Virus record (IMG/VR): IMGVR_UViG_3300036802_000003
Location: 32,001 to 96,000 of that record
Source of the DNA: a virus
Lineage: Duplodnaviria; Caudoviricetes
DNA: 64,000 nucleotides
Strand: one strand, 5' to 3'
This document shows, piece after piece, positions 2,273 through 5,730 of the stretch. The translations under genes and the position numbers were made by a program. Below the pieces are notes generated by a model. That model was not told the origin of the DNA. It saw only the letters and a program-made list of their open reading frames with translations, and did not search any database. Positions within the stretch are counted from its first letter, which is position 1. Each line of letters starts with the position of its first letter.

Positions 2273-2866
2273 ATGGACAGACTATTAACTTTAGAGAAAA
2301 CGGTGTTAGATTTAGAAGATGCTCTGCACCAGACACAACGAGAATTCAAACTATTTAAAGACCTTATGTTAGGTCAACCAGAATTACCATACTTCTCTGA
2401 TATCCCAGGATACCAGTTACAGTACCATCACAATGGAGATGCAGGTATTGACCTACCTATCTTTGATGAGCGCTTACTTGATGGTGAATTCGGTACTGAA
2501 GGGTTTGTAGACATCCACCCAGGATGTAGCTATACTCTTAAAACAGGAATTCATATGGCAATCCCACAAGGTCATTATGGTATGCTGGACACACGTTCAG
2601 GCACATCTAAGTTAAAAATGACTCTGTTATGCCGCACTATTGATGAGCCATTCCGTGGTAACATTCGTTTAGCATTACACAATGTAGGCACTGAAACAGT
2701 TCGTGTGGCTAACTACGATGAACTAGCACAAATGGTTATCAAGCGTTACACTAAGGCTGCACCTAAGGGCTTTGCCACTTATGGTGAGTTCCTTGAATAT
2801 GCAGGTAATACTGCACGTGGGCAGGAAGGTTTTGGTAGTAAAGAACGTAATGTAGGAGGGAAATAA
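2273..2866 (+). CDS. dut: trimeric dUTPase
   Basis: GDAGIDL, RSG, TIDEPFRG, AQMV and RGQEGFGS motifs. Confidence 0.9.
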   Translation: MDRLLTLEKTVLDLEDALHQTQREFKLFKDLMLGQPELPYFSDIPGYQLQYHHNGDAGIDLPIFDERLLDGEFGTEGFVDIHPGCSYTLKTGIHMAIPQGHYGMLDTRSGTSKLKMTLLCRTIDEPFRGNIRLALHNVGTETVRVANYDELAQMVIKRYTKAAPKGFATYGEFLEYAGNTARGQEGFGSKERNVGGK

Positions 2867-3315
2867 TGAAAACTAGTACTGCACTAGATGTCATTGAACA
2901 GGGTAGAGCAGTTAGACGCAGGGGTTGGGTAAAAGGTGCTGTAGTATATAAGTCTGACAATGATATCATTGTGGACTATTCTAGAGTAGAGGAGTCTAAA
3001 CTGAGTGAAGCCTTCTCTACAGTGAGATGGATAGCCAAGCCTGAAGATTTGGTGGCTACTGACTGGGTAGACCTAGGGGTACTTACAGAAGGTAAGGAAC
3101 CTAACTGGGAAACTGGTTGGTCTAAGTATGATGAGCGCTTACAGGAGTTTGCAGTAAAGGCAGATGCAGTTAGGCTTGCGGTTAATGACCACATAGACCT
3201 AGCTAGCTATGCAAGAAACTCGTTCCGCATGCATATGGATACTACTATGTTGTGGGGCAAGCAAGCAATAGAAGATGCTATTGCACGTGAAGAGCTTATA
3301 AAGGAGGGCAAATAA
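2866..3315 (+). CDS. DUF2829/Tad2-like domain fused to an Acb2/Tad1-like helical hairpin
   Basis: N-half AL...G.AVRRRGW...W....EDLVATDW; C-half DTTMLWGKQAI aligns with the 3317 gene. Confidence 0.6.
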   Translation: MKTSTALDVIEQGRAVRRRGWVKGAVVYKSDNDIIVDYSRVEESKLSEAFSTVRWIAKPEDLVATDWVDLGVLTEGKEPNWETGWSKYDERLQEFAVKADAVRLAVNDHIDLASYARNSFRMHMDTTMLWGKQAIEDAIAREELIKEGK

Positions 3316-3316
3316 C

Positions 3317-3490
3317 ATGAGTAGACCTAGAGAGATTCAGGCAGGGGAGTTAGCTAAGAGATTTACGTCCCTTAGGAGCCTTATTGATATTACTATACCT
3401 GATAGTCGTGAGAAGTCAGTGGCTCTCACTAATTTAGATACTGGGTATCTATGGGCAAAAGAAGCTCTAGACAAGAAAGGGGACAAGTGA
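3317..3490 (+). CDS. 57-aa Acb2/Tad1-like hairpin protein (absent from ORF track)
   Basis: RBS AAGGAGG; MSRPREIQAGELAKRFTSLRSLIDITIPDSREKSVALTNLDTGYLWAKEALDKKGDK. Confidence 0.65.
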   Translation: MSRPREIQAGELAKRFTSLRSLIDITIPDSREKSVALTNLDTGYLWAKEALDKKGDK

Positions 3491-3491
3491 T

Positions 3492-3752
3492 ATGGACATT
3501 GGATATGCTAGAAACTTGATTAAAGAGGGAAAAAAGGCTGCTCGTAAAGGTTGGAATGGGGCAAACATGTTCATATACTATGTACCTGCTGCTTCATACC
3601 CACCTGTAACAGATGTTGCAAAAGAAGCATTTGGCGGAGAAGATGTACCATATCGTGAATACGTTGCCTTAAAAACAGCACAGGGAGACGTTGCTACGTG
3701 GTCACCTAGTGGCTCTGATTTCCTAGCTGATGATTGGATAGAAGTAAGATAA
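3492..3752 (+). CDS. tad2: Thoeris anti-defence Tad2-like (DUF2829) protein
   Basis: GKKAARKGWNG.NMFI...Y...KTAQG....W.PS..D.LADDW. Confidence 0.8.
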   Translation: MDIGYARNLIKEGKKAARKGWNGANMFIYYVPAASYPPVTDVAKEAFGGEDVPYREYVALKTAQGDVATWSPSGSDFLADDWIEVR

Positions 3753-3876
3753 GTGAGAAACTGGTGGGATATATACACCATTGATTACTGGAAAGAGTTT
3801 TGGTTTAGGGTCTACATCCGTAAGTATCATATGGATGTAGCCCGTTTCCATAAAGAAGTAGCTAAAAAATATAAGA

Positions 3877-4269
3877 ATGGAGCTGAACAAGATGTCAGTA
3901 GTAAACAAAGGTAAAAATATCAAGCAGGTAGATGAGAAGAAGCAGAAACAACAGGAGATTAAGCGTAAGGAGAAAGAGGTACAACGTCAAAAGGCTTACT
4001 GGAATGCTATGATTACACGTGAAGAAGCACGTGATATGGTTATCAAGTCACAAGAGCCTTTAATGGAGCAAATGCGTACTATGTTTATTCAAGTGAAAAC
4101 ACTTACAGAATTTGTGTTACAGAATGGTATTGCTACAGAAGAACAGCTTAATGAGATTGGAGTGCCTATCTACAATGAAATGTACGGTATTCCAAGTAAG
4201 CAAGAAGTAGAGAATCCAGAGGAGGTGACTAAGGATGCCGATAAACCTGTCCAAGGGTCAAACAATTAA
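3877..4269 (+). CDS. hypothetical protein
   Basis: ORF in operon; charged and helical. Confidence 0.65.
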   Translation: MELNKMSVVNKGKNIKQVDEKKQKQQEIKRKEKEVQRQKAYWNAMITREEARDMVIKSQEPLMEQMRTMFIQVKTLTEFVLQNGIATEEQLNEIGVPIYNEMYGIPSKQEVENPEEVTKDADKPVQGSNN

Positions 4270-4900
4270 TCTGTCTAAAGAAGGTACTAACGGTCTAAAG
4301 AACGTAACAATTGGTCTTAGCTGGGGTGCAAAGGTATTAAAGGCAAGCCCTACTAAGGAAGAGGCAAAAGGGTTTATGGAAAAGTTCTCTTCCTTTTTTA
4401 AAGGCGGAGAGACGAAAATCACTACCCCTACTAGTGTTCCTAAAATGGACATCGACTCTTCAGTATTCTTGATTAAGAATACTAACGAACGCCTGACAAC
4501 GGTATACTATGGTAACCTACGTGCTCCTGGTGTACGACATGCTGGAGATGACCTTACAGGTAACAATAAGAAGGGTAAGCACGACAATGAGGAGATTCAT
4601 GTAGACTTTGACAAGATACCTCGTAATGTGCACAAACTATTCGTAGTTGCTAATGTATTCTCTCCTATGACTGGTCACTTTGGGTGGGTACCTGGATCAT
4701 ACATCCGTATCAAGGATGAAAAAGGTAACGAGGTAGTACGTTATGAATTAGGGGCAGACTTCAAGGATAAGAAAGGTATTGTTGTAGCAGAGTTATACCG
4801 TGATGGTAACGGTGACTGGAATTTCCGTGCCATTGGTAAAGCTACAAAAGGTAATTCTATGAGGAATCTAGAAGACTTATGTTTACAGGGGGACTTCTAA
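4235..4900 (+). CDS. terD: TerD family stress protein
   Basis: INLSKGQTINLSK, GLSW, DIDSS, HAGDDLTG, DNEEI, ELYR..G.WNFRAIG. Confidence 0.9.
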   Translation: MPINLSKGQTINLSKEGTNGLKNVTIGLSWGAKVLKASPTKEEAKGFMEKFSSFFKGGETKITTPTSVPKMDIDSSVFLIKNTNERLTTVYYGNLRAPGVRHAGDDLTGNNKKGKHDNEEIHVDFDKIPRNVHKLFVVANVFSPMTGHFGWVPGSYIRIKDEKGNEVVRYELGADFKDKKGIVVAELYRDGNGDWNFRAIGKATKGNSMRNLEDLCLQGDF

Positions 4901-4903
4901 TAT

Positions 4904-5656
4904 ATGGAAATCTTACAACATATACTTGATACCTACGCACAGTTCTTTGACTGGAGCATGTGGGGAGAAGTACTTACTAGTAAATCAGCTTGGGGCTTAA
5001 TCCTAAGTTTAGTAATCCTTGAGGGCTTGTTATCAGCAGATAACGCCCTCGTACTTGCCATCATGGTAAAACACTTACCAGAGGAACAACGTAAGAAAGC
5101 TTTATTCTATGGACTACTTGGTGCATACTTCTTCCGATTCCTATTCATTGGAGTAGGGACTCTACTAATCAAGCTGTGGTACGTTAAACTAATTGGTGCG
5201 GCATACCTACTGTGGATTGTAGTTGACCACTACCGTAAGAAGAATGTAGAGCAAGAAGAGGGTAAAGAGTTCAATACAGGTGGAGTACTTGTAAAATGGT
5301 TCGGTGTATTCTGGGCTACTGTTATCTCTGTTGAGATAATGGACATAGCGTTCTCTGTGGACAGTATCCTAGCAGCGCTTGGTGTATCAGAGCAAGTTTG
5401 GGTATTATTACTTGGTGGAATGTTAGGAATTCTAATGATGCGTGGAGTGGCTCAACTATTCCTATGGTTACTAGACAGAATTCCTGAACTAGAGAATACT
5501 GCATACTTCTTGATACTGGCGATTGCAGTTAAGATGGGTGGAAGCGTGTTTGGTCTAGAAATTAGCCATGAAGTGTTCGTTATCACTCTAGTGAGTGCAT
5601 TTGCCATCACATTTGCGTTGCATTATCTTAAAAAATACCTACCCCGTAAGGGTTAA
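4904..5656 (+). CDS. terC: TerC family membrane protein
   Basis: LEGLLSADNALVLA, DIAFSVDSILAA, multiple TM helices. Confidence 0.92.
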   Translation: MEILQHILDTYAQFFDWSMWGEVLTSKSAWGLILSLVILEGLLSADNALVLAIMVKHLPEEQRKKALFYGLLGAYFFRFLFIGVGTLLIKLWYVKLIGAAYLLWIVVDHYRKKNVEQEEGKEFNTGGVLVKWFGVFWATVISVEIMDIAFSVDSILAALGVSEQVWVLLLGGMLGILMMRGVAQLFLWLLDRIPELENTAYFLILAIAVKMGGSVFGLEISHEVFVITLVSAFAITFALHYLKKYLPRKG

Positions 5657-5730
5657 CATAGATTAGAGAGAGGATATCCTCTCTCTATTTTCTTTGTTTA
5701 AGAAGGGTATAATTTAAGGGGGTTTTGAAA

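Follow-up and report, generated by a model that had tools for sequence, protein, structure and literature searches.

The 64,000-nucleotide stretch of viral DNA analysed here (the window; bases 32001-96000 of the IMG/VR record IMGVR_UViG_3300036802_000003, which is a complete virus of 139,244 bp with direct terminal repeats) carries three coupled genes that probably constitute an anti-defence sponge slot, their products forming homo-oligomers that would sequester nucleotide-derived immune signals of the host. The source virus is recognisable from its sequence as a CP-51-like myophage of the Bacillus cereus group, the region sharing ~86% nucleotide identity with the Bacillus phages CP-51, JL and Shanette, members of Siminovitchvirus (Herelleviridae), and ~82% with phage S4-1. 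The genes encode a 149-amino-acid (149-aa) fusion of a Tad2-like domain with a C-terminal helical extension, a 57-aa minimal protein of the Acb2/Tad1 hairpin family (DUF7681), and an 86-aa canonical Tad2 (Tad2-86). Sponges are one of the main routes by which phages get past signalling defences such as Thoeris, the cyclic oligonucleotide-based antiphage signalling system (CBASS) and Pycsar. All known, characterised sponges are short proteins that form homo-oligomers, and a second sponge domain is a frequent fusion partner of Tad2, an arrangement seen as a means of blocking two signals with one protein (10.1101/2025.07.12.664507).

In the reading favoured here, each of the three proteins would assemble with copies of itself, all three being expressed together. 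Tad2-86 would take histidine-ADP-ribose (His-ADPR), perhaps also cyclic mononucleotides; the 57-aa protein would take a cyclic-nucleotide signal or one of the cyclic ADP-ribose (cADPR) type in a remodelled pocket; and the fusion would have, beside a Tad2 pocket of altered build, a further helical module that is either a hairpin of Acb2/Tad1 type, much diverged, or a helical module of unrelated origin serving in oligomerisation or as a sponge. Related phages fill the same slot with varying combinations of four cassettes, exchanged by recombination at the borders between genes.

Family assignments of the three genes

The three open reading frames (ORFs; Table 1) are real and translationally coupled: the ATG of the fusion gene shares 1 nucleotide (nt) with the stop codon of the dUTPase gene, gaps of 1 nt separate the fusion gene from the 57-aa gene and the 57-aa gene from that of Tad2-86, and GGAGG is found 6 nt upstream of the fusion start and 9 nt upstream of the start of the 57-aa gene. 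The coordinates and 1-bp gaps given for them in a preliminary description of this DNA were confirmed, and its proposal of a sponge cluster holds insofar as two Tad2-family domains and one Acb2/Tad1-hairpin protein exceed curated family thresholds and Tad2-86 is close to the solved ModTad2. A six-frame search of the whole 139-kb genome with the Pfam families PF11195 (Tad2-like) and PF24729 (Acb2_Tad1_hairpin) found just two Tad2-like domains and one hairpin; neither Sequestin (PF21825, searched to E<=10) nor Acb4 (PF13876, searched to E<=1) matched any part of the genome.

Tad2-86 scores 78.7 bits against PF11195 (cut-off 25), in agreement with the six-frame search and with the full DUF2829 pattern previously described in it, and its gene is 89.5% identical in nucleotide sequence to the Tad2 gene of phage JL. 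Its matches in the PDB are ModTad2 (8v3e, 9eib; E 3e-27), SPO1 Gp34.65 (E 1e-9) and HgmTad2 (E 9e-10). Proteins of the Tad2 family are homotetramers with ligand pockets at the protomer interfaces. By homology, Tad2-86 is most likely a homotetramer as well, of which the likeliest ligand would be the His-ADPR of type II Thoeris, possibly together with the cyclic mononucleotides of Pycsar.

Homologues of the fusion make up only three clusters in a collection of 5.8 billion proteins (the window lineage, CP-51 gp78 and one metagenomic cluster). The ratio of its nonsynonymous to synonymous substitution rates (dN/dS) is 0.12-0.27 in comparison with relatives, and it is therefore a constrained coding gene. 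Fusion residues 1-68 match positions 1-71 of the 73 in the PF11195 profile (36.8 bits, E 5.9e-9), which bears out the earlier suggestion that the N-terminal half is a diverged second copy of DUF2829; BLASTP does not align this half with Tad2-86, their kinship being visible through the family profile only. In alignment, the domain is without three segments found in canonical Tad2. Its PDB matches comprise a weak one to HgmTad2 (8kbi, E 0.007) and include entries labelled on deposition 'Inhibitor of Type II CRISPR-Cas system' and AcrIIA7; the protein in the 8kbi entries is HgmTad2, a binder of CBASS-type cyclic dinucleotides such as 3'3'-cyclic GMP-AMP (3'3'-cGAMP) (10.1101/2025.08.24.671296). 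In the relative on IMG/VR contig L010, fusion residues 25-63 (L010:3073-3189) are a recombinant patch with dS 0.96 and dN 0.41, compared with dS 0.13-0.18 in the otherwise near-identical flanks, a pattern that suggests allele swapping of the pocket-forming region of the fusion. A model of the whole fusion built with AlphaFold 2 (AF2) from a 4-sequence alignment was discarded (mean predicted local distance difference test score, pLDDT, 53.5), its Foldseek rows in the PDB being meaningless (E>=0.55).

The 57-aa protein, which had been called Acb2/Tad1-like on account of the peptide PDSREKSVALTNLDTGYLWAKEAL, does contain that peptide and belongs to the family: it scores 28.6 bits against PF24729 (cut-off 27; 27.5 bits in the six-frame genome search), matches PHROG 1454 and 14434 at E ~2e-9, and reaches family members by tblastn. 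It carries the helix-2 signature SREKSxAxTxLExAxxW as DSREKSVALTNLDTGYLW, and through this signature a family profile that includes it matches Acb2_43 (9ptq, E 0.0028) and Tad1 (7uav, E 0.035, and the 8kb series). The family counts >7,676 proteins, mostly stand-alone and of 67-70 aa, and its members characteristically form homohexamers with pockets at the interfaces. Aligned with those of 67-70 aa, the 57-aa protein starts directly after the conserved IENNFKYH segment and is missing 3 residues of helix 1; its short N-terminus is real, because the stop-to-stop frame of the ORF has only 62 codons. Short forms of 53-65 aa with LWAKE are present in Bacillus phages S4-1 and C30-3, both of which exceed the Pfam cut-off, and other short stand-alone forms of 48-65 aa occur with no fusion nearby. 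Across three phages the gene retains an intact frame, a strong ribosome-binding site (GGAGG) and 96% identity of the encoded protein, there being only 5 substitutions by which to judge selection on it.

In the Acb2 of phage PaMx33 the base of cGAMP stacks on Y11 and the pocket also includes L14, and in Acb2_43 the N-terminal beta1 strand lines part of the 3'cADPR pocket, with K55 as a diphosphate contact (10.1101/2025.08.24.671296). Lys48 (LWAK) of the 57-aa protein occupies the position of K55, as counted by hand from the alignment. The N-terminal lid is missing, and the pocket and ligand of the 57-aa protein must therefore differ from those of canonical Acb2.

Other members of the hairpin family came to light in passing. 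Bacillus phage vB_BcM_CUBc25 has a canonical 70-aa hairpin ORF (L006:2414-2626) flanked by the gene for the minor head protein and the next gene for a structural protein, where its GenBank record has no annotated feature. Paenibacillus phage PBL1c (L003:1462-1665) and many of its relatives have 67-aa hairpin proteins (88 bits), which several Paenibacillus larvae phage records label 'putative phosphomannomutase', in what looks like a propagated misannotation.

The orphan C-terminal half of the fusion

The C-terminal half of the fusion (the C-half) is an orphan. It has no match in Pfam even at E<=10 (PF21825 Sequestin included) and none in the PDB by sequence or profile; phmmer against 1.8 billion representatives returns its own cluster only, three further matches to repetitive or long proteins having been dismissed as spurious; tblastn against phage genomes finds CP-51 only; and a feature search of the ESM Atlas gave no usable match. 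With a dN/dS of 0.18-0.27, the domain is evidently under purifying selection. For the C-half alone, AF2 predicts helices at residues 81-106 and 112-148 of the fusion (pLDDT 68.4, predicted template modelling score 0.34), the packing of the two predicted helices being uncertain. With this model, Foldseek found nothing in the PDB or BFVD, and a wide VIA-align search returned generic long-helix proteins (GapR, nucleoporins and coiled coils; Z<=6.3), with neither Acb2 nor Tad1 among the 50 rows listed; for a two-helix model, the negative results of both structural searches are uninformative.

The resemblance of the C-half to the hairpin family resides in a single motif. BLASTP aligns 14 residues of it with the 57-aa protein, 6 of them identical (E 0.001 in a single comparison), and hhalign against the hairpin family gives a probability of 1.6-5%. 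A hidden Markov model (HMM) of the broad hairpin family scores the C-half at 5.6 bits, which is reached by 11 of 5000 shuffles and equalled by another ORF of the window. The HMM of the short Bacillus-phage subfamily scores it at 9.8 bits, which none of 5000 shuffles reaches, and among 268 six-frame segments of the window it places the fusion ORF at the top of the non-self ORFs (E 0.013), ~6 bits ahead; the match is confined to the motif MDTTMLWGKQAIED (residues 124-137). Only the second part of the helix-2 signature is present (DTxxLWxKxAI), the SREKS part reading SYARNS, and in the hhalign register Ser114, at the start of helix 2, is as far from the conserved Trp as the Ser of SREKS is in the family. 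When the profile of the C-half was used to score 3,053 ORFs taken from 79 hairpin loci unrelated to this one, those of the hairpin family took 7 of the top 21 places (Mann-Whitney p ~1e-30), with no single score being significant; because the hairpin ORFs are homologous to one another, this enrichment merely repeats the one motif match.

The chances that the C-half is a very diverged Acb2/Tad1-type hairpin are about evenly balanced. The 'Tad2-Acb2/Tad1-like fusion' of the preliminary description is not established, the partner being an orphan domain with a motif match over 14 residues and two helices predicted at middling confidence. The alignment of the C-half with the 57-aa protein proposed there survives at the level of the motif, and homology between them is not established, given the Pfam result and the hhalign probability. 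Likewise, the proposed layout (Tad2 plus hairpin, hairpin, Tad2) stands for three of the four domains, the fourth showing motif-level resemblance only; searches with DUF2829 and Acb2/Tad1 profiles, suggested as a check, recognise Tad2-86, the N-terminal domain of the fusion and the 57-aa protein, and do not recognise the C-half.

A variable slot with exchangeable cassettes

The three genes occupy a slot between the dUTPase gene and a conserved gene for a 51-53-aa protein. Homology of the window to all relatives stops at the dUTPase stop codon and resumes at 3727-3732, and the breakpoints at 2859-2866 and 3490-3495 are gene borders. Four cassettes are found in the slot in total: the fusion, the hairpin gene, a ModTad2-like Tad2, and a 70-aa mini-Tad2. 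The window has the fusion, the 57-aa hairpin gene and Tad2-86; two IMG/VR contigs (L008 and L010) have the fusion, the 57-aa hairpin gene and mini-Tad2; CP-51 has the fusion, with its motif intact, and mini-Tad2, without a hairpin gene or a canonical Tad2; JL and Shanette have a 90-aa Tad2 and mini-Tad2; and S4-1 has a 65-aa hairpin gene, a 105-aa Tad2 and mini-Tad2, without the fusion. Phage C30-3 also has a short hairpin gene and no fusion. Two Tad2-like domains are present in every variant of the slot. Members of the mini-Tad2 subfamily (35-52 bits against Pfam) take the last position in the slot of every relative, the window excepted. The 3' end of the Tad2-86 gene has a segment of ~20 nt (3727-3747) that can be aligned with the JL Tad2 gene as well as with the 3' end of mini-Tad2, and this segment is likely to be a recombination site for cassette exchange. 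Mini-Tad2 was also seen near hairpin genes in unrelated viral contigs (L031:3970-4182 and L058:5577-5789).

Because the breakpoints fall at gene borders and the relatives have differing subsets of the cassettes, the modules are separable and most likely act as independent homo-oligomeric sponges, and the slot is best described, from its gene content, as an anti-defence hotspot with exchangeable, self-sufficient cassettes. Beyond these phages, none of 80 IMG/VR hairpin loci examined has Tad2 and the hairpin in one ORF, and three unrelated loci among them have a Tad2-like gene within 3 kb. In one of these three, on IMG/VR contig L030 (2657-3111), the start codon of a canonical 74-aa hairpin gene (85 bits) overlaps the stop codon of the Tad2 gene before it (76 aa, 96 bits); the two domains follow one another as they would in the fusion, and the pair is a plausible precursor state.

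Alternative readings of the locus

Several observations count against independent homo-oligomeric sponges. The Tad2-like domain of the fusion is shortened where SPO1 Tad2 forms its pockets; the 57-aa protein clears its Pfam cut-off by just 1.6 bits, is without the N-terminal stretch that contributes to the pocket in each of the two solved types of Acb2 and, judging by this truncation, might be incapable of binding a ligand alone; and the hairpin gene lies immediately 3' of the fusion gene in three of the four fusion-bearing genomes, which is compatible with a functional link. A narrowed form of the hetero-oligomeric, multi-specific sponge envisaged in the preliminary description would accommodate some of these features: the C-half would be an Acb2/Tad1-type hairpin that co-assembles with the lid-less 57-aa protein, the aromatic linker NWETGWSKY of the fusion serving as lid, in an Acb2-like assembly of mixed composition to which Tad2-like domains would be tethered. 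The motif is equivalently placed in helix 2 of the two proteins (MDTTMLWGKQAIED and LDTGYLWAKEALDK), including the Lys that matches K55 of Acb2_43, and the spacing of Ser114 from Trp, the absence of the FKYH lid, the adjoining and translationally coupled genes, and the gene order on L030 all point the same way. Such an assembly is nevertheless unlikely, since CP-51 keeps the fusion with an intact motif in the absence of a hairpin gene, S4-1 and C30-3 have short hairpin genes in the absence of the fusion, the stand-alone Tad2 is replaced by mini-Tad2 in the closest relatives, homology of the C-half to the hairpin family is not established, and every characterised sponge is a homo-oligomer (10.1101/2025.07.12.664507); the gene sets of CP-51 and S4-1 in particular argue against an obligate complex. 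Co-folding of the C-half (residues 69-149) with the 57-aa protein gave an ipSAE interface score of 0.50 (0.49-0.55 in three runs), compared with 0.01 for the best of 3 controls, with a partner pLDDT of at least 75 and at least 86% of contacts common to the runs. Of the pairs used to calibrate the score, 58 of 80 solved complexes and 2 of 110 mismatched pairs attained the pass mark. A passing score of 0.60 or less was obtained by only 7 of those solved complexes and by both of the passing mismatches, so that a pass at this level is wrong more often than not, except where the guess had been a likely one from the start. The pass may reflect likeness to solved Acb2 assemblies; it lends weak support and was counted neither for nor against the mixed assembly, which on the whole appears doubtful. 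If true, it would be without precedent as a hetero-oligomeric sponge of immune signals, its pockets being made by two different gene products, and would break the homo-oligomer rule.

It is a serious possibility, a little short of an even chance, that the C-half is unrelated to Acb2/Tad1 and is instead a generic coiled-coil or helical module by which the Tad2-like domain would change its oligomeric state, a new sponge domain, or a protein-binding module, in which the motif arose by chance or convergence. Its orphan status, the lack of a match in Pfam, the PDB or fold libraries, its generic long-helix structural neighbours and the shuffled sequences and other window ORF that reach its score with the broad family HMM would all be expected in that case, and Tad2 is known to be fused to various helical or other sponge domains (10.1101/2025.07.12.664507). 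Set against this are the first place and the clear shuffle test that the fusion obtains with the subfamily HMM, the location of the match on the most conserved motif of the family and in the expected helix, and the failure to detect Sequestin or Acb4 in the genome. It is far less probable that one or more of the three genes does not encode a sponge at all, for example if the short DUF2829 domain were an AcrIIA7-like anti-CRISPR protein or had another role, or if the 57-aa hairpin were a decaying remnant. The anti-CRISPR labels of some PDB matches to the N-terminal domain, the missing pocket-forming residues of the 57-aa protein and the few substitutions available in its gene would fit such a loss or change of function, but the 8kbi entries are HgmTad2, a cyclic dinucleotide binder, the 57-aa gene is intact and conserved, and a short hairpin subfamily is conserved in other Bacillus phages. 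Independent sponges in a cassette slot, with a C-half of either origin, remain the most probable account of the locus.

Genomic context

The sponge genes belong to a same-strand string that continues (3753-5687) with the 53-aa border gene, a 130-aa gene of PHROG 24050 (function unknown), TerD (131.5 bits) and a TerC-like membrane protein, and is closed by the first strong terminator-like site 3' of the sponge genes. The border gene has counterparts of 51-53 aa in CP-51, JL, S4-1, L008 and L010, and a family search with it gave no match. A promoter scan gave matches no more frequent than in shuffled sequence. At the gene junctions (2855-2866, 3303-3319 and 3476-3494), the C-terminal codons (…GGK, …EGK and …GDK, each followed by the stop) double as the ribosome-binding site for the gene that follows. 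The sequences at the first and second junctions (GGAGGGAAATAA and GGAGGGCAAATAA) are nearly identical.

Table 1. Features of the sponge slot and its surroundings (positions in the window unless a contig is named)
Feature	Position	Strand	Basis
dUTPase gene, left border of the variable slot	2273..2866	+	PF00692 49 bits, PHROG 135
Fusion gene, 149 aa: Tad2-like domain and C-terminal helical extension	2866..3315	+	ORF
Fusion N-terminal domain, residues 1-68, short diverged Tad2-like (DUF2829)	2866..3069	+	PF11195
Fusion C-half, residues 69-149 (81 aa), orphan domain with two predicted helices and motif MDTTMLWGKQAIED	3070..3312	+	
57-aa minimal Acb2/Tad1-hairpin (DUF7681) gene	3317..3490	+	PF24729
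86-aa canonical Tad2 gene (Tad2-86), ModTad2 clade	3492..3752	+	PF11195
Trp-rich conserved 53-aa gene, right border of the variable slot	3753..3914	+	
Terminator-like hairpin	5664..5687	+	10-bp stem, then T-run
Mini-Tad2 copies in relatives	L008:3627-3839, L001:2604-2816, L002:2441-2653, L007:2155-2367		

Comparison with known sponges

The locus consists of known families and is unusual in three respects: the domain joined to Tad2 is an orphan, the Acb2-family protein is of minimal size, and the cassette slot is well sampled. In this slot five closely related phages have different two- or three-gene sets drawn from four sponge-type cassettes. The 57-aa protein, an Acb2-family member without the known lid residues, bears on the minimum size of a working sponge and on the whereabouts of its pocket. 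By the published logic of guilt by fusion, under which Sequestin was found through its fusion to Tad2 (10.1101/2025.07.12.664507), the orphan domain is a candidate for a new or extremely diverged sponge domain.

Of the solved sponges, the closest to Tad2-86 is ModTad2 (also MoTad2; 8V3E, 9EIB), from a Myroides odoratus prophage, with which residues 2-83 of Tad2-86 align (E 3e-27) at ~55% identity as counted by hand from the alignment; the two are of equal length class and both belong to PF11195, although the host and phage type differ. ModTad2 sequesters the His-ADPR of type II Thoeris (10.1101/2024.01.03.573942), and its second pocket takes the cyclic UMP and cyclic CMP of Pycsar (10.1101/2025.08.24.671296). 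SPO1 Tad2 (Gp34.65; 8SME/8SMF/8SMG) is likewise a Tad2-family protein of a Bacillus myophage, but is far more distant from Tad2-86 (E 1e-9) than ModTad2 is; it binds glycocyclic ADP-ribose (gcADPR), the signal of type I Thoeris, and has no inhibitory effect on type II (10.1101/2024.01.03.573942). The N-terminal domain of the fusion is shorter than SPO1 Tad2, and has no PDB match to it at E<=10.

PaMx33 Acb2 (8H2J) and Acb2_43 (9PTQ) share with the 57-aa protein the helix-2 signature P-x-SREKS-x-A-x-T-x-L-E/D-x-x-x-x-W, but are 76-94 aa long, and the equivalents of Y11 in the former and of beta1 in the latter are absent from the 57-aa protein, which starts after FKYH. The hairpin signature is found also in Tad1 (CbTad1; 7UAV/7UAW, 8KB*), matched at E 0.035, in which the hairpin is C-terminal behind a small domain much as the motif is in the fusion (residues 87-111 of 123-138 in Tad1, 124-137 in the fusion); the N-terminal domain of the fusion differs in that it matches PF11195 and has no sequence match to Tad1 chains at E<=10. 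The published fusions of Tad2 are Acb4-Tad2 of Pasteurella phage Pm86 and Tad2-PF21825 'Sequestin', and a fusion of Tad2 to Acb2/Tad1 is not mentioned among them (10.1101/2025.07.12.664507). As in these, a Tad2 domain and a second short domain are joined in one polypeptide in the window, but the partner is neither Acb4 nor Sequestin, being an orphan that is confined to CP-51-like phages.

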